DNA of 61,682 nt, filler included. It is 8 parts of 8 records of this genome, joined end to end, with 100 filler letters (N's around TTAATTAATTAA, not from the genome) between each part and the next. Parts side by side here need not be neighbours in the genome. Positions count along the whole stretch, not along the records: positions 56,437 to 61,682 come from SRR31147125_17018; 7 more parts are not named here. One strand, given 5' to 3'. The notes below the pieces were generated by a model. The model ran no database searches. It was not told where the DNA came from and was given only the letters and a program-made list of their open reading frames with translations. The translations under genes were made by a program, and so were the position numbers. This document shows positions 6,112-61,682 of the stretch, one piece after another; position 1 is the stretch's first letter; every line of letters starts with the position of its first letter.

Positions 6112-6211
6112 NNNNNNNNNNNNNNNNNNNNNNNNNNNNNNNNNNNNNNNNNNNNTTAATTAATTAANNNNNNNNNNNNNNNNNNNNNNNNNNNNNNNNN
6201 NNNNNNNNNNN
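6112..6211. other. Artificial contig spacer
   Basis: N run, TTAATTAATTAA (6156-6167, stops in all frames), N run. Confidence 0.99.
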
Positions 6212-16168: not shown

Positions 16169-16268
16169 NNNNNNNNNNNNNNNNNNNNNNNNNNNNNNNN
16201 NNNNNNNNNNNNTTAATTAATTAANNNNNNNNNNNNNNNNNNNNNNNNNNNNNNNNNNNNNNNNNNNN
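16169..16268. other. Artificial contig spacer
   Basis: N/TTAATTAATTAA/N linker. Confidence 0.99.
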
Positions 16269-19586: not shown

Positions 19587-19682
19587 ATCTTATTTCTTTC
19601 CCGAATTCTGCTTTATCGCAATAACTCTGTTAAAATTCATATTTGTAATTATCCTTATCGATTATTATAATATAACTATTAA

Positions 19683-19699
19683 TGTTAGATCTTTGTTAG
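19683..19699 (-). promoter_or_regulatory. Putative pho-box-like tandem repeat
   Basis: Minus strand CTAACA-AAGAT-CTAACA (11-bp period) about 100 nt upstream of phoB. Confidence 0.45.
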
Positions 19700-19870
19700 T
19701 GCAGCATAAATACTTTATTATATTATTATACTATAATAGTAACTGGTTATGCCACTCAAGAGAAATTCATAATTATCATGTTTACCCAGTAAAAATTACG
19801 GATAGCTCTGGCAATCCAAAGCTATCCGTAATAAGACTATCTCTAATAAAAGTTTTCTATTCAGAAAGTA

Positions 19871-23783: not shown

Positions 23784-23883
23784 NNNNNNNNNNNNNNNNN
23801 NNNNNNNNNNNNNNNNNNNNNNNNNNNTTAATTAATTAANNNNNNNNNNNNNNNNNNNNNNNNNNNNNNNNNNNNNNNNNNNN
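23784..23883. other. Artificial contig spacer
   Basis: N/TTAATTAATTAA/N linker. Confidence 0.99.
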
Positions 23884-28404: not shown

Positions 28405-28473
28405 ATTTCAACACCTTATCATGTTTTATTACTACTCTTATTGTTGTAAATATGATATTTTTTATGTAAAGAG

Positions 28474-28508
28474 ATGTCCTAGATTGCTAAATAAGCAATC
28501 TAGGACAT
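28474..28508. terminator. Perfect 15-bp hairpin
   Basis: ATGTCCTAGATTGCT-AAATA-AGCAATCTAGGACAT. Confidence 0.65.
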
Positions 28509-28658
28509 ATCACCGTTTATTCCAGCTGTGTAAATCACAGCGACACTTGCAAACTTTGCACGCAGTGCGATAGGTCTTGTATTATAATTGCACCTAGGAC
28601 TCTCCAGTCACATAATTATGTTAAAAAATGTGAAAATTCGCTTTAGTGATGTAAAGCA

Positions 28659-29174: not shown

Positions 29175-29274
29175 NNNNNNNNNNNNNNNNNNNNNNNNNN
29201 NNNNNNNNNNNNNNNNNNTTAATTAATTAANNNNNNNNNNNNNNNNNNNNNNNNNNNNNNNNNNNNNNNNNNNN
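29175..29274. other. Artificial contig spacer
   Basis: N/TTAATTAATTAA/N linker. Confidence 0.99.
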
Positions 29275-43119: not shown

Positions 43120-43219
43120 NNNNNNNNNNNNNNNNNNNNNNNNNNNNNNNNNNNNNNNNNNNNTTAATTAATTAANNNNNNNNNNNNNNNNNNNNNNNNN
43201 NNNNNNNNNNNNNNNNNNN
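43120..43219. other. Artificial contig spacer
   Basis: N/TTAATTAATTAA/N linker. Confidence 0.99.
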
Positions 43220-45569
43220 TTACCAGCTTTATATTCAGCATTTTCCTTTAAGTCACCCAAGAGACGCGCAGAACCAATCTCCTGTGAATTTTTAGGAATT
43301 TCTACATCCAGAATATTCTGCAGCTGGTTCTGTTTCCCTTCATATGCTTTTCGAGTAACCAGGAGTCCGCCACTTACTGTTGTTACTGAAGCAGATTCTT
43401 CTCCGAAAAAGGTGAATTTCGGGAATCGTTCAATAATAATATGTTTCAGTTCTATAAGTACGGCCGGATCCAAATCATCAACATCTTTCACAAGACTATA
43501 GACTCTCTGAATAGAATCTTTAGGACTTTCCTTCAAAAATTTATGAAGATTCTTCTCAGAAAAGAGAATAGTATTTATTGTTTTAGCTATTTTTCTATTT
43601 GGAGCTACATCTCTTTTACTGTTAACAGCACGGTTGGAAATATCGAGCATATGCAGCAGGGCTAATAGAATTTTCTCAAAACTGAGTTTAATCGTTCCTT
43701 CCCAGAAAGTTCGTTCATAATTCTTTACAAGCCACAAAAACACTTCCGGCATCTCTTTATATCGATCATACGCTTCCCGAAAAATTTGAAGAACAACATC
43801 GTTCTGTCCTGATCTTCAAGTTCATCAACAATGAAAGTTGAAAGATAGTAGGGGTACAGCTGTTTAAACAGCTGTGGCCAATCTTCTCTTGCATTCATCA
43901 ATTCCTCGAGGAATGATCTTTTCAGCTCAGCATCAGGCAGATTGCTGAAAATCTGGTCCATATTATTAATAGAATCGAGAAGCTGTCCAAATTTCACTTC
44001 AATGTTATGATTGAGAAATGAGTAGGATTTAACCAGTTTTTTTACTATGAGATAACTGGTAATTACTGAATCATTCACTATTGCGAAGTTATTAATGATA
44101 TTTGTAAAATAACCGAAAATTTCTGAGAAATAGTCAGATTCAGGATCACTGTTATCCAGAAATTCTCGAAGAATCTTCACTTTAAGAAGAAAATCTTTTT
44201 CAGCTTTGAACATATTAAGTGTTTTTTCTTCATAAGAAACCGGTGTTTCTCTTACTGAATACTGATCAGTAGCTTCAGGATTAACTCCAAAATAGGGATC
44301 TGTTTTTAACAGTTTCTTGGCCGTGCTGTTCCAGGTAAGCCATTCATTGGCTGATAAAATGGATGGAACCAGCTCAGCTTTAATCTGCTTCAGGCTGGCT
44401 GAGTTATCAAAACTCTGAATTATAGTTCGCAAAGTCCAAAGTACATCCTGTTTTACTTTCGCTTTCAGTCTTTCTTTCGGGAAAACACTCTTAATAACCC
44501 AAATATGATTCTTTAATAGCACATTTAAAGCGTTAACAGCCATCTTCAGAGCCATTTCATGATCTCTTTTTTTAATGAAATCGATAACAAGAGAGTCTTC
44601 TTTTATTTTCTGGATTCTACCGATACCCCATGTTTTATGGTGTACAAATGTGCCCTGATCAAATGAAATATGCTTCTCAAAATCAGCAATAGCGGCATTA
44701 ATATCTCTATATGACTGAGTTAGATTTGTTTTTTCAATATAGTCTTCTATCTTACTGTGGTCAGCAAATTTCTTCCGATAGATATTTATTAATCTGTCTC
44801 TTGATTCACTATTTGTCGGCTGAAAAAACAAAATATCTTTCAGAATCAACAGGCATTTATCCCAGTTCTCTTTTGAGTAATAGATATCATACATACCTTC
44901 AAGCATTTGCGCGGCACGATCTTTATTCAGCGTTTTTGCAACACGCAAAACCACATTCTGCTGATTGTCATAGTCTTCAGGTGAAAATAAAAGAAGTTTT
45001 TGCCAAATTTCTTTTATTTGAGAAAAATTCTTGATAATGATGAAACGATGCAGTGATTTTTTGCAATAAAAAACCGCTTTCTCAATATCACTCAGTTCTT
45101 CATAACGTTCAGCGATCAGGCGAATCAATTCAATTTCATCATAATCAACTTTTATGAGCCTTTCCCAAATATCGAATTTCTCATCTTCTTTCCCGGTATT
45201 CTCATAGCATTCAGCTAAAATACGCAAGGCTATGGCGTTTTCTCCATATTTCAGCAAGCGTAAACAGAGGAATTCTACTATTAGCCACTTACGATTGTCA
45301 TAAAACAGGTTAATCAACTGAATAATATTTGAATCGTCAATCAGGTGTTTTTCCAGAGAAATAATTCCGGAAATATAGAGTGATATAATACTGTTTTTTG
45401 TGTGCAGCAAATGTTCATCACAAAGTTCTTTAACTTTAATCCAATCATTTTTATTAATTTCTTCATAGAGAAGGCTGTCAAGATCTTCAAAGTTATTTAC
45501 CGTGTAACTATTAATTGTTGCCCGAGTCCATTTTTCCTCATTCAGCATTTCATTGATTTTATCAATCAT
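43220..45569 (-). CDS. greA: Spirochaete-type long transcription elongation factor GreA (frameshift near 43760; 3' truncated)
   Basis: LNEEKWTRAT start, FVHHKTWGIGRI, C-terminal NSQEIGSARLLGDLKENAEYKA. Confidence 0.92.
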
Positions 45570-48865: not shown

Positions 48866-48965
48866 NNNNNNNNNNNNNNNNNNNNNNNNNNNNNNNNNNN
48901 NNNNNNNNNTTAATTAATTAANNNNNNNNNNNNNNNNNNNNNNNNNNNNNNNNNNNNNNNNNNNN
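48866..48965. other. Artificial contig spacer
   Basis: N/TTAATTAATTAA/N linker. Confidence 0.99.
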
Positions 48966-55580: not shown

Positions 55581-56336
55581 ATGAAAGTTTGTATTGCAGA
55601 AAAACCCAGCGTTGCCAAAGAAATTGCTCAAATTGTTGGAGCAAAAAGCAGGCGAGACGGATATTTTGAGGGGAACGGTTACCAGGTGAGCTGGACTTTC
55701 GGACATCTTTGCACCTTGAAAGAACCACACGATTACACGGAGCGGTGGAAATACTGGAATGCCAACGAACTCCCTATGATTCCGCAACGTTTCGGAATTA
55801 AAGTAATTGACGACAGCGGCGTAAAAAAACAATTTGAAACACTTGAAGGATTAATTGCAAAAGCAGAAGAAATTATAAACTGTGGTGATGCCGGCCAGGA
55901 AGGAGAACTCATCCAGCGCTGGGTGCTTAACAAGGCACAAAACAAAGCGCCGGTAAAACGCTTGTGGATTTCTTCGCTTACCGAGGAAGCCATAAAAGAA
56001 GGTTTTGCCAAACTAATGGATGGCAACGATTTTAATCACCTCTACGAAGCCGGTAGTGCGCGGGCAATTGGCGATTGGCTTTTGGGACTAAACGCCACCC
56101 GAATGTACACCCTAAAATACGGGCAAAACAAACAGGTACTTTCCATCGGACGGGTACAAACACCAACGCTGGCATTGATTGTAAACCGCCAAAAAGAAAT
56201 CGATAATTTTAAGCCCGAACCGTATTACGAGATAAAAACCATTTACCGCGAAACCACATTTTCAGCAAAAAGCGGGCGCTATAAAAACCCGGAAGAAGCA
56301 CAAACTGTTTTAGATGAAATTTCGGGTATCGACCTG
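55581..56336 (+). CDS. topB: DNA topoisomerase III (3' truncated)
   Basis: IAEKPSVA, DAGQEGELI, RLWISS, SIGRVQTPTL. Confidence 0.95.
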
Positions 56337-56436
56337 NNNNNNNNNNNNNNNNNNNNNNNNNNNNNNNNNNNNNNNNNNNNTTAATTAATTAANNNNNNNN
56401 NNNNNNNNNNNNNNNNNNNNNNNNNNNNNNNNNNNN
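56337..56436. other. Artificial contig spacer
   Basis: N/TTAATTAATTAA/N linker. Confidence 0.99.
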
Positions 56437-56438
56437 TT

Positions 56439-56465
56439 GGCGACCCGTTTCGGGTCGCCTTTTTT
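56439..56465 (+). terminator. Rho-independent terminator of an upstream (missing) gene
   Basis: GGCGACCCG-TTT-CGGGTCGCC-TTTTTT. Confidence 0.85.
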
Positions 56466-56588
56466 ATTTGTTGGTTAAAACATATAGTTTGGTGTGATTT
56501 TTCTTTTCGGTAACCACTTAAAAGTAACAAAAAAGAAGATACCAATAAAAAATTAAAACATGTTTTTTATCATGTTTTACTGAATATC

Positions 56589-56617
56589 TTGACAAGCAAT
56601 ATTCTCTGGAATATGCT
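56589..56617 (+). promoter_or_regulatory. Sigma70-type promoter
   Basis: TTGACA-N17-TATGCT immediately upstream of the riboswitch. Confidence 0.75.
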
Positions 56618-56634
56618 TTGACAAAATCTACTCG

Positions 56635-56777
56635 CTTCAGGAACAGGGAAGTTGGTTCAATGCCAACGCGGTCCCGCCGCCGTATTCGAGGACGAAACCG
56701 ATAATAACCACTGAGCTTTTAGCTTGGGAAGGAATCGGGAGTAGGATGATTCGTTAGCCGGAATACCTGATCTGAAG
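56635..56777 (+). promoter_or_regulatory. Cobalamin riboswitch
   Basis: AGGGAA, GTTGG-TTCAATG-CCAAC, GCGG-TC-CCGC-CGCCGTA, CCACTG...GGGAAG, B12 box AGCCGGAATACCTG. Confidence 0.92.
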
Positions 56778-56825
56778 TTCTCTTTTTTTACCTGGCTTCG
56801 CGCGGACGAATAGGAGGTATACGCG

Positions 56826-57752
56826 ATGCATTCCAACAAATTCTTTATTCTATTTTTAATGGCCCTAACAATTCTTTTCGCATTTGCATGTGACTCATCT
56901 TCCGATGATAGTGTTGCTGATGGCGATACTGAAAACGAGTCTACTACTGATGGCGATACAGACACTCCCGCAGATGGAGACAAAGACCCTGCCGATGGTG
57001 ACACAACCGACGCTACTGATACAGCAGACGGTGACACCACAGAAACAGATGGTGATACAACAGAGCCAGTCGATGGTGACGCCGAGGCGACCGAAGCAGT
57101 CGATGGTGATACTGAGGCTACAGAAACGGTTGATGGAGATACGGAAACTACTGAAGTTGAAGCAGATGTAACTCCAGGCAAAGCTGGTTTGGTAGTCGAT
57201 TTGGGCACCAGAGGTGTTCATACCGAATGTATTGATTTGCCGAACGGTCAAATGACAGGACAAGAACTGCTTGAAGCTTCTTCTCTCACGACAGTTTTCA
57301 GTTATGATGGCTTGTTATGCAAAATTGAAACAGTTGGCTGTAACAAAACTGATGGCAAATGTGATAACTGTGCTTGCCCTAGCTATCCTGACAACTGCAA
57401 TTGGTGGAATTATTATAACCTGACTTCCGGTGCTTGGGTATTGTCACTTGTTGGTGCAAAAGACTACGATGTTGTAAGTGGTTCGGTAGACGGTTGGATT
57501 TTCAACGGTGGCGATCCTAAACCAGCAGTTTACACATTCGATCAAATCTGCAACCCGACAACTGATGGTGATGTGGAAGCAACTGAAACCGAAGTCGAAG
57601 TTGAGACTGAACTCGAAGTTCCAGAAGTTGAGCTTGAAATCGAGACTGAACTTGAGCTTCCTGAATTGGAGCTTGAACTCGAAAAGGAATTAGAAATTCC
57701 AGAGATCGAACTCGAACTTGACAAAGAGCTTGATGTAGAGATAGCTCTTTAA
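56826..57752 (+). CDS. Lipoprotein with DGD-Thr repeat stalk, DUF4430-like domain and acidic E-L-E tail
   Basis: Lipobox AFAC; about ten DGD repeats; LCKIETVGC...WWNYY...WVLSLVGAKDYDVVSGSVDGWIF; AGGAGG RBS. Confidence 0.82.
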   Translation: MHSNKFFILFLMALTILFAFACDSSSDDSVADGDTENESTTDGDTDTPADGDKDPADGDTTDATDTADGDTTETDGDTTEPVDGDAEATEAVDGDTEATETVDGDTETTEVEADVTPGKAGLVVDLGTRGVHTECIDLPNGQMTGQELLEASSLTTVFSYDGLLCKIETVGCNKTDGKCDNCACPSYPDNCNWWNYYNLTSGAWVLSLVGAKDYDVVSGSVDGWIFNGGDPKPAVYTFDQICNPTTDGDVEATETEVEVETELEVPEVELEIETELELPELELELEKELEIPEIELELDKELDVEIAL

Positions 57753-57771
57753 GTCTTTAAAATCACTAATT

Positions 57772-58079
57772 TTTCACCTTCGCTGGTGAAATTTCGCAAG
57801 CTGGATTGCTTGGTAGCGTTTGCCGAAAGCGGCGTCGGCAAACGAATTGTTCCTGCTTGTTTCTGTCTGATTTTCGCCATAGGATCAGATAGTGGAGGAA
57901 AGTGACCTCCTGACCCAAGACTTACGGACTCGGTAGTTAATACAAATACCACTTTTCATCAATCCGGGTCCGTATTCATAGATTCCATTTGCTGCCCGCT
58001 TCTATCGTAATTCTGCAAAACTTTAAACTATTGTTGCCAAAGATGCACGCTAAGGCTATCTTAATCTCACAGGTGGCAA
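57772..58079 (+). ncRNA. Candidate unclassified structured RNA
   Basis: At least six adjacent stems, G-U pairs that work only on the + strand, and two loop-loop complementarities (see findings). Confidence 0.45.
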
Positions 58080-58101
58080 GTATCAATACTCTGGAGATAA
58101 A

Positions 58102-59648
58102 GTGAAGCTGAAAATCATCATCATTGCAATTTCTGTCATTGTTTTTTTGATTGGCAGTATCCCGTATTTTATCGCATATCAAAACGAAGACGAGCAGCAT
58201 GTGTTCAACGGATATCTGCATTATCCGGAAGATATGGACAGTTATGCAGCCTGGACAAAGCAGTCGTCGGAAGGAAATTGGCTGTTTTACAATCCTTACG
58301 ATAGCTCAAAAAATGATGGAGAATTCCTGAGTATTTTATGGTTGTTTTCAGGTAAGTTGTCGGTCGGTTTCAGTGTAATCCTTTGTCTTTTACGGGTACT
58401 TTCCTTGTCGTTACTAGCCCTTGGTTTGTGGCTTGTTTTAAAAGAGTTGAAGTTAAAGACCTTTGTAATTACATGGGTTTATGTGGTTTTCTTTCTCGGC
58501 GGCGGACTAGGCTGGCTGATGCATTTCATGCGTTTGGACGCCCCGCCCCCGATCTTTACACAGAAATTTTTCCATTCGTTCAAATTTCGTTTGTGCCGCA
58601 TTCTGCATTTGCTCATGCTTTTGTGCTATTTGCTGTTTTGTCAGCTTATTTGACAATCAGGAAATCAAGTTTCAGGCAATCGATTTTAACCGGAGTTTTG
58701 CTTTTAATTCTCGGCAGTTTCAGAAGCTACGAACTTGCAGTCGCATATGTTGCAATCGTAACTTTTTTCGTGTTTCATGCTTTTTCAGTAAAAGATAAAA
58801 TCAATCATTTAAAGTTGGTTTTGCCAATAATTTCAATACCTTTGCCGATTTTTGCCTACGCCTGGTGGTTGACAAATAAAAGCCTTGGTTTCTCGATTTG
58901 GGGGACAAGCAATGCATATCCGCCGCCTGAAATTCTGACATTCGTTATTGGGATTTTCCCAATAGTTTTGTGTGGTTTAATCTGGATTTTTGCAAGATCC
59001 TGGAAGCTTCATAGATATACGCTTTTCGATACTTTGTTTGCTTCGTGGATTGCCACAACATGGATCTTGATGTATAGCGGATTACTGCCTTGGGCCTGGC
59101 GTACTTGCGGCACTTTTATAACGCCGATGTTGCTCGCTGGAGCATATGCTGTTAATAGCTTAACTTGGCGAAATTACATCAAAATTCCAATTTTATTTTT
59201 GGTGTTGGTTATAGCTTTGCCGACGACTTTTCTAATTGTAAATGAAAAAACAGAAATCGGACAAACGCAAAATCGATATTATTATCATCATCCGAAACTG
59301 GACGAAACTTTTAGCTGGATTGAAGCGAATAACATAAAGGGAATATTTTTCACCCATGGTCATATCGGGCAGAAAATTCCTGGGAAAACAATGGCCAAAA
59401 GTATTATGGGGCATAAGGATCTGACTGAAAATTTCATCGAAAAGCGCAGAGATTACGCATACTTCGTTGGAGCGAGAAACGCTGGACGAGCAGTCGAAAT
59501 ACTTTGGAAAAATAATACAGAATGGCTTTTGTGGGGGCCGCTTGAGAGAAGAAGAGCTACATTCGATCCGGATGATCTGCAAGGATTCAGGAAATTCTAC
59601 GATAACGGACTTTATAAAGTTTATGGAAACCTAAAAGATCAAGATTAG
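58102..59648 (+). CDS. Polytopic membrane protein, GT-C-like (frameshift near 58548)
   Basis: First loop YPEDMDSYAAW...GNWLFYNPY, about 12 TM segments, soluble tail ILWKNNTEWLLWGPLE. Confidence 0.7.
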
Positions 59649-59792
59649 TTAAACCATCAAAATGACCGAAATTTTCTGCAACCCATCAATCTAAATATTT
59701 GACAGGCGTCAAGTTTACCGCTTATTATTGTTTTTTAACTTAAGTGTGTTACCAAAATCTTACCAATCCAAGGATGAGCTAGAGGTTCTAAA

Positions 59793-61639
59793 ATGTTAGA
59801 TGCCAAACTGCGTAAAATGGGATTTTTATTAAGCCTTATTATTTCCGTTTTCATTATTTGTGGATGTGCAATAAGCGACGGATCGTCATCATCGGATAAC
59901 AACGGCGATGGAGATAATGTTGAAATCGACGGACTGGGCGATTCTGATGATCTTGAAAGTGAAAATTCGGAAGGAACCTCTGAAGATGGCGACACAGCAG
60001 TTGAAGATGGCGATACAACAGCAGAGGACGGAGACACAACTACTCCTGCTGATGGTGACTCGGCCAAAGAAGATGGTGACACAACTATCGAAGATGGCGA
60101 CACAACTGTTGAAGATGGTGACACAACCGTTGAAGATGGAGACACGACTGTTGAAGATGGCGATACAACAGAGACAACCGAAACCACACCTCCTGACTTC
60201 GACCACTCAAAGGCGATTCATGTCGATCCAATAGATGGAGATGACAAAAACGATGGAACCAAAGAAAACCCTGTAAAAACAATCGTTTGGGCTCTCGAAG
60301 TGGCAGGAACTTCCCAACCCAAAAAAGCGGTTTATCTGGCAATTGGTACATATAATGGACAAATCGAACTAATCGATGGCGTTAGCATTTTCGGTGGATT
60401 CGATCCTGCAAATGATTGGGCGCATACGAGCACCTTGTCGGAAATTCTGGTTACCGAAAAAGATGCAGGTGGCAATAATATAAGAGCCATTATTGGCGAA
60501 TACTTGGGAATACATCTTGAACTTGCATACTTGAAAATAAAAACAGGACCAAATAATGCCGAAGCGAAATCCGGATCGAATTATGGTATCTGGGTTTTCG
60601 AGTGTGATAAAGTTCACGTGCATGATTGCACAATAGACGTTGGTGCCGCCCAAAACGGAGCTGATGGAATTGCCGGTAAAAAAGGTGCTGATGGTAAAGC
60701 TGGTGGCAATGGTGGTAAAGGTTGCGATCATTGCGATCAGCCCAGTGCCGGTGCCGGAGCTGGAGAAGCATGTAATGATCCGAATACCAAGGTGGAGGCG
60801 GTGGAAAAGGCCATGATGGAAATGGAGCTGGAACTATTGGTGGATTCGGAGGATCAGGAAATTCAGTAGGTGGAACTCCTGGAACTCCACATAATAATGG
60901 AGACGGTGGAGCTGGCCAAGCTGGTGGTGATGGTGCCGAGGGAGACAATGGTTTTGGAGGCGATGGTTCTGGTGATGTTCCGGGAACTGGATACTGGATC
61001 GGATCTGCCGGTCTTGATGGTAAAACAGGAACACCAGGTCATGGTGGTGGCGGCGGTGCAGGTGGTGCCGGAAAAGACGGTCCTGGAATATGTGTCAACC
61101 ATTGGGGTGGTTCCGGTGGTGGCGGTGGTGGCGGCGGTTGTGCCGGTACATTCGGAACCGGTGGTGCTCCCGGAGGTGGAACATTCGGAGTTTTCTATTA
61201 CAATTCAGTTCCTTATGTAAATAATTGTGATATTCATCTTGCATCAGCAGGTAAAGGTGGCGAAGGTGGTGCTGGTGGTCTTGGTGGTGCGGCTGGAGCC
61301 AAAGGTGCTGGTGGTGCTGCACACAAAAGAACCTGTTGGGGAAACACATATAGTTCATGGGCCGGTGGAGCCGGTGGAGCTGGCGGAAAAGGTGGTGAAG
61401 GTGGTGCTGGCGGCGGCGGTGGCGGCGGAGTCAGCTTTGGCGTCTATGCTTTTGATGCTCCTCCGGGAACTATGGGCGTGATTGAAAACAATTCCATCGA
61501 ACCGGGTTTTGGTGGTAATGGCGGTAATGCAAGCTCGGATGACAAATACAATAAAGGTTCAAACGGTGAAGCAGGTAAAATATATTATCCTGCGATGGAC
61601 CCTAAAGAAGATGGTGACACCACTGAAGCAACGGAATAA
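59793..61639 (+). CDS. Surface lipoprotein: EDGDTT repeats + DUF1565-like domain + Gly-rich region (frameshift near 60790)
   Basis: Signal ending ICGC; HVDPIDGDDKNDGTKENPVKTI...AIGTY...GVSIFGGF; alternate frame GGGGGKGHDGNG... is open to TAA at 61639. Confidence 0.85.
59982..60173 (+). repeat. 21-bp coding tandem repeat (EDGDTTV)
   Basis: GAAGATGGNGAYACAACNGTT-like units at 59982, 60003, 60069, 60090, 60111, 60132 and 60153. Confidence 0.9.
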
Positions 61640-61682
61640 TTATATTTAAGACTAATATCTAAATTCCCTAAGCAGTATCTTT

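Follow-up and report, generated by a model that had tools for sequence, protein, structure and literature searches.

The hairpin element at positions 57772-57974 is most likely an ordinary gene-end structure. We hold with moderate confidence that it represents the terminator and stabiliser hairpins at the 3' end of the mRNA of a lipoprotein gene that is controlled by a cobalamin riboswitch. The element is about 200 nt of independent hairpins and not the 300-nt nested fold described in a first-pass annotation of this DNA; the structured part is given as ~200 nt because structure stops near 57975. It lies on the last piece (56437-61682; 5.2 kb) of the window, by which we mean the whole stretch of 61,682 nucleotides that was analysed. 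On this piece a terminator, a promoter-like site, the cobalamin riboswitch, the lipoprotein ORF, a spacer and a membrane-protein gene follow one another, with these features:

56439-56459: canonical terminator, followed by TTTTTTATTT
56589-56617, + strand: promoter-like site TTGACA-17-TATGCT
56596-56784, + strand: cobalamin riboswitch aptamer RF00174 (cmscan, 83.3 bits, E 4.6e-19, model positions 1-189 of 189)
56826-57752, + strand: acidic lipoprotein-like ORF of 308 aa with a transcobalamin-beta-like domain at residues ~105-260
57753-58101: spacer of 349 nt containing the hairpin element
57772-57791, + strand: hairpin H1, 7 bp, loop UUCGCU, -8.1 kcal/mol, pair probability 0.95
57817-57844, + strand: hairpin H2, perfect 10 bp with 6 G-C, -14.8 kcal/mol, pair probability 0.87-0.97
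57863-57892, + strand: hairpin H3, 12 bp with 3 G-U, -11.6 kcal/mol, pair probability 0.95
57894-57910, + strand: hairpin H4, GGAGG/CCUCC, loop AAAGUGA, -6.2 kcal/mol, pair probability 0.97-0.98
57923-57974, + strand: hairpin H5, 11-bp stem (1 G-U), 30-nt A/U-rich loop, -16.5 kcal/mol, pair probability 0.96-0.99
57976-58101, + strand: unstructured spacer of ~125 nt with a promoter-like site and GGAG
58034-58062, + strand: promoter-like site TTGCCA-17-TATCTT, sigma-70-like (9/12), 40 nt before the GTG start
58094-58097, + strand: GGAG, putative ribosome-binding site of the membrane-protein gene, read from the sequence
58102-59648, + strand: membrane-protein gene, ~515 aa, GTG start, 1-base frameshift near 58545

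The window is a chain of contigs whose seven joins (6112-6211, 16169-16268, 23784-23883, 29175-29274, 43120-43219, 48866-48965 and 56337-56436) each consist of 44 N, TTAATTAATTAA and another 44 N. Genes at the joins are cut (for example, a topoisomerase gene at 55581-56336), and genes on the two sides of a join are not true neighbours. A Logan contig of run X1, which is an independent assembly, covered 57269-58218 with 0 differences at a depth of only ~4x; its data set is probably the same as that of the window. One X1 contig agreed with the window as far as 57773 (one base into H1) and continued with unrelated sequence absent from the window, and a second contig diverged into non-window sequence in the same manner at 57462. 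These divergences may reflect a paralogue, a strain variant or an assembly branch; judged by depth, the overlap of the diverging contigs with the window is a short part only. The rpoC of the window is 56% identical to that of genome G001. Its core matched 191 of 201 sampled Myxococcota genomes and was 55-64% identical among the matches listed, and since the identity is no higher than this, we place the organism outside the Myxococcota. A 614-aa ORF at 43725-45569 matched the GreA-fusion model PRK14720 (E 2.6e-190) with 634.7 bits, which falls below the model cut-off of 714.

A script check recovered all nine pairings listed in the first-pass annotation (stems and loop-loop matches) at the coordinates given there. 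The pairings that are thermodynamically solid are only the five local hairpins, H1-H5, between 57772 and 57974, whose mean pair probabilities were computed in three sequence contexts. Of the proposed nested fold, these five hairpins stand (0.87-0.99), and the stems that were to close and end it have probabilities of about zero. CTTGG/CCAAG, proposed as the closing stem of H2-H4, had a pair probability of 0.00, and the minimum free energy (MFE) structure instead places a short imperfect helix around H2 alone. The proposed last stem, TTGCCA/TGGCAA, had a pair probability of 0.01-0.02, and its TTGCCA 5' arm is the -35-like hexamer of the promoter-like site at 58034-58062. Five stable local hairpins with no long-range helix joining them are in line with a 3' mRNA tail. 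The independence of the hairpins and the unsupported multi-helix junction speak against a lineage-specific functional RNA.

Two pseudoknots had also been suggested. GGCG/CGCC (4 nt) is at chance level: two loop pairs with matches of at least 4 bases were seen, and the chance mean was 1.3, with a P value of 0.37 for two or more. AAAGUG/CACUUU, a 6-nt complementarity of the H4 loop with positions 57950-57955 of the H5 loop, is marginal (P 0.044, loop shuffles), and this match is suggestive only. We also considered a pairing of riboswitch positions 56749-56760 with the H2 tail at 57836-57847 (11 of 12 bases) and rejected it as fortuitous: the same 1.7 kb contains several inverted pairs that are just as good.

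The folding strength was compared with that of shuffled sequences, and the spacer and the core were both more stable than all + strand shuffles. The 216-nt core (57765-57980) had z-scores of -4.60 on the + strand and -3.57 on the - strand (0 of 200 shuffles as stable, each strand), and its folding energy was -73.3 kcal/mol on the + strand versus -65.4 kcal/mol on the - strand. Four G-U pairs account for the better folding of the + strand: three lie in 57863-74/57881-92 and one in 57923-33/57964-74. On the minus strand they become C-A mismatches, and the wobbles thus work on the + strand only, as previously claimed. On the + strand, the centroid structure of the core equals the MFE structure. 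The whole 349-nt spacer had z-scores of -3.74 on the + strand (0 of 100 shuffles as stable) and -2.40 on the - strand (1 of 100). With sliding 150-nt windows, z went no lower than about -2, and it was positive past 57937 (57937-58086: +1.23).

As a background we used a crude gene map with 25 spacers of at least 150 nt, of which 17 (150-420 nt) were folded whole and 8 long ones were skipped. Three of these 17 other spacers had z <= -4 on one or both strands: the riboswitch region and the spacers at 19587-19870 and 28405-28658. Measured against the genome's own background, the z-score of the core is not exceptional, and hairpin-rich gene ends look like a habit of this genome because 3 of 17 spacers fold this strongly. 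The spacer at 19587-19870 (z -4.65/-4.18) contains perfect palindromic pairing of up to 17 bp at 19795-19832, and that at 28405-28658 (z -4.17/-5.43) a perfect palindrome of 15 bp at 28474-28508; neither spacer has a tRNA or an Rfam match. Functional structured RNAs stand out by GC content in AT-rich genomes. The GC content of the core was 45.4% compared with 37.2% in the window, 47.1% in the riboswitch and 26-42% in the other spacers. Being near that of the riboswitch and well above that of other spacers, it speaks against a plain 3' tail.

The element matches no known Rfam family, be it a riboswitch, tmRNA, RNase P, 6S, SRP, OLE, HEARO or another, in keeping with the first-pass annotation. 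Searching 57600-58250 with cmscan, we obtained no match among the 4227 families of Rfam 15 even at E <= 10, apart from three snoRNA/lncRNA chance rows of 15-16 bits on the - strand (58065-58179), for which the family thresholds are 36-50 bits. A minus-strand reading frame (57749-57952) that had been named as an alternative to the pairing has no homologue and no credible Pfam match. For this 67-aa ORF, no candidate with shared words was found among proteins of 36-118 residues, and the best Pfam match of the small ORFs, the minus-strand ORF included, had an E-value of 0.035 and 14 bits against a cut-off of 27. The + strand ORFs of 28-39 aa have no ribosome-binding site upstream and no family match. 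These searches support the view that the region is probably non-coding, as far as this can be tested.

None of the collections searched yielded a homologue of the element. The 61.7-kb window contains no second copy (best blastn matches 11-18 nt, E >= 2); with no repeat of it in the window, the element does not look like a REP or MITE-like repeat as far as the window shows. Among public runs, the sequence of the element occurs in one DNA run (X1), and no RNA run was listed. Viral contigs searched with the 28-mer of H2 gave 0 matches, and blastn against plasmids and phages gave no match. The stem pattern of H2 was found at 8 loci in metagenome contigs (GC 61-65% in the 6 for which it was given). 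We rejected these as chance matches; none of them matches the 5.2-kb piece beyond 35 nt around the pattern.

Upstream of the element, RF00174 at 56596-56784 is the only Rfam family that passed the gathering threshold in the whole window (cmscan). The element lies 3' of the gene headed by this 83-bit cobalamin riboswitch, in the same transcript region, in agreement with what had been proposed. The product of this gene has a signal-peptide-like N-terminus ending in Cys22 and carries acidic DGDT repeats. For its central domain, 1376 representative homologues were retrieved at E <= 1e-3, with identities of at most 47%, and fusions to an ECF S-component or to a prenyltransferase-like toroid occur in some members of the family. 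The AF2 model has a pLDDT of 88.4. In a Foldseek search of the PDB (best E 1.1e-3; TMt 0.67-0.70), the best 19 rows comprised 3u7z and the beta domains of transcobalamin, intrinsic factor and haptocorrin, and the alignment profile gave only weak chance rows against solved structures (E >= 0.025). The predicted transcobalamin-like structure and the riboswitch control fit a corrinoid binder.

A member of the lipoprotein family was present in 5 of the 201 sampled Myxococcota genomes, with a cobalamin riboswitch directly upstream in 4 of the 5 loci. In 3 riboswitch-headed loci the following gene abuts or overlaps the lipoprotein gene and encodes a conserved second lipoprotein (52-72% identical mutually, no Pfam match). 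A long 3' tail after the lipoprotein gene was found in none of the five loci. Conservation across phyla extends to the combination of riboswitch and binder and does not include the long structured tail; since the distant riboswitch-lipoprotein loci lack such a tail, it stands outside the conserved B12 system. We rejected the idea that the spacer is a remnant of the gene following the lipoprotein relatives (best tblastn E only 2.4-7.1).

Intrinsic terminators have a G+C-rich stem-loop shortly past the stop codon, and both H1 and H2 qualify. H1 starts 20 nt past the lipoprotein stop codon on the coding strand and has the tail TTTCGC; H2 lies 65 nt past the stop codon. H2 is 1 of 7 terminator-like sites in the 5.2-kb piece. 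A terminator-like hairpin within 150 nt of the gene end was present in 6 of 46 window genes, the lipoprotein gene included. In the tail of H2, AATTGTTCCT, a count of 5 T in 8 is obtained only if an offset is allowed; the canonical terminator at 56439-56459 is followed by TTTTTTATTT. Among the hairpins, H2 is the likeliest terminator candidate.

Downstream of the hairpins, 57990-58110 had a z-score of +0.58, with no stable helix over the GGAG site. No terminator or hairpin sequestering the ribosome-binding site adjoins the start of the membrane-protein gene. TTGCCA-17-TATCTT may be the promoter of this gene; 20 promoter-like sites were found in the 5.2-kb piece versus 9.5 expected. Both halves of the membrane protein are 41% identical to P0001 (527 aa), and the gene start at 58102 stands because the N-terminus aligns with this homologue from residue 10. 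The X1 Logan contig has one extra C behind 58545, in a C-run, so the frameshift is probably an assembly error (~4x depth) and the gene probably intact. The X1 contigs also differ from the window at 59780 (+AG) and 60788 (+A). Among 5.8 billion proteins the membrane protein had one homologue, and it had one genome-contig locus, in a Myxococcota MAG (L001), where the gene lies beside PilZ and VWA genes behind a 120-nt divergent spacer with no riboswitch or Rfam match nearby. By these comparisons, the membrane-protein gene appears to have no B12 link and to be unrelated to the lipoprotein gene. The next gene (59793-60869 onward) encodes another acidic, lipoprotein-like product, which has DGDTT repeats, starts with DUF1565 and matches the LIC10774 family weakly. 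Before this gene, at 59699-59728, lies a strong promoter-like site, TTGACA-18-TATTAT.

Taken together, the hairpins begin 20 nt past the stop codon on the coding strand, where the + fold is the stronger one, include a terminator-like H2 of a kind that only 6 of 46 genes have, and end at ~57975, ahead of an unstructured stretch with a sigma-70-like site. A membrane-protein gene with no B12 link, other window spacers folded equally strongly (3 of 17) and distant relatives of the lipoprotein gene without a tail likewise favour a 3' tail. We infer that one stem-loop, most likely H2, terminates transcription, and that the stem-loops jointly would stop 3'-to-5' exonucleases. Blocked exonucleases would give a longer-lived message for an abundant surface B12-binding protein, and 57976-58101 would be ordinary spacer with the promoter and ribosome-binding site of the membrane-protein gene. 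Some points do not fit easily. The U-tract of H2 is poor compared with that of the canonical terminator, five hairpins over 200 nt exceed what termination needs, the centroid equals the MFE structure, and H4 and H5 share a 6-nt loop match. What argues for more than a terminator is the weak U-tract, together with the hairpin count and the GC content. Should the element be no more than a terminator and stabiliser tail, it would be ordinary, and it would serve to annotate where a B12-regulated transcription unit ends.

Rather unlikely, in our judgement, is a lineage-specific functional structured RNA, either a regulator derived from the 3'UTR or a separate small RNA from ~57770, with H4 and H5 kissing. 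The GC content relative to the window and the other spacers, the folding strength (z -4.60, 0 of 200 shuffles, centroid equal to MFE), G-U pairs valid on the + strand only, the 6-nt loop complementarity of H4 and H5 (P 0.044) and the lack of an Rfam family that accounts for the element all point in this direction. So does a weak promoter-like site (TAGAGA-16-TAAAAT, 57736-57763) that would start an RNA at H1, but such sites are common in the piece. Furthermore, 3 of 17 other spacers fold equally well, the tail is missing from distant riboswitch-plus-lipoprotein loci, and with no homologue in the collections searched there is no sign of covariation or conservation. Distinctly improbable is the more specific case that the array is an RNA domain co-regulated by the riboswitch, released as a stable 3'UTR-derived RNA with a compact H4-H5 kiss fold and titrating a protein or pairing with B12-related messages. 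Lying behind the cobalamin riboswitch, such an array would be made only under B12 scarcity. If this were true, a riboswitch would have a second output that acts in trans, and a conserved RNA domain would mean a trans-acting branch added to B12 control in a little-known bacterial lineage.

As an intercistronic element in an operon of two genes, a reading that we regard as improbable, the array would be transcribed by read-through, and its hairpins would protect the upstream cistron after processing, so that the lipoprotein would be made in larger amounts than the membrane protein. The two genes share a strand, with no canonical U-tract terminator between them, and stable hairpins lie directly 3' of the first cistron. 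However, a promoter-like site separates the second gene from the hairpins, the gene families are unlinked elsewhere, the homologue of the membrane protein has other neighbours, and another conserved gene stands behind the relatives of the lipoprotein gene.

We give very little credence to the element having no function, as a set of chance palindromes or as the remnant of a decayed gene or mobile element. It is an orphan sequence by our searches, and hairpin clusters do occur elsewhere in the window, but none of the 200 shuffles was as stable, translated similarity to the gene following the lipoprotein relatives is lacking (tblastn E 2.4-7.1), the small ORFs have no notable Pfam match and the window holds no second copy. 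A regulatory leader of the membrane-protein gene, such as a riboswitch-like sensor or attenuator, is scarcely probable: a long, structured, GC-rich region does lie upstream of the gene, but the 125 nt adjoining the start codon are unstructured (z +0.58), TTGCCA/TGGCAA hardly pairs (0.01-0.02), no expression platform (terminator or helix masking the ribosome-binding site) adjoins the start, the homologous gene at L001 has only its 120-nt divergent spacer with no Rfam match, and we rate this reading low because of the lack of structure in the platform region and the intervening promoter-like site downstream of the structure.

Compared with known systems, the element resembles the cobalamin riboswitch RF00174 in lying in the same transcript region and in having a similar GC content, but unlike RF00174 and other Rfam RNAs it matches none of the 4227 families. 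The REP sequences of malE-malF in Escherichia coli and the hairpins of the puf operon in Rhodobacter are intercistronic and lead to unequal expression within the operon. Like these, the element lies between the gene for a presumably abundant binding protein and a membrane-protein gene on the same strand. It differs in being unrepeated in the window, unlike a REP family as far as visible, in the promoter-like site before the second gene, and in that the two flanking genes are not linked in other genomes. The 'positive retroregulator' that lies after Bacillus thuringiensis cry genes is a 3' stabiliser stem-loop. Unlike intrinsic terminators and 3' stabilisers, the element has five hairpins over 200 nt instead of one, and the U-tract of H2 is weak; it shares with them stable, G+C-containing hairpins directly past the stop codon on the coding strand, and H2 passes a loose terminator scan.
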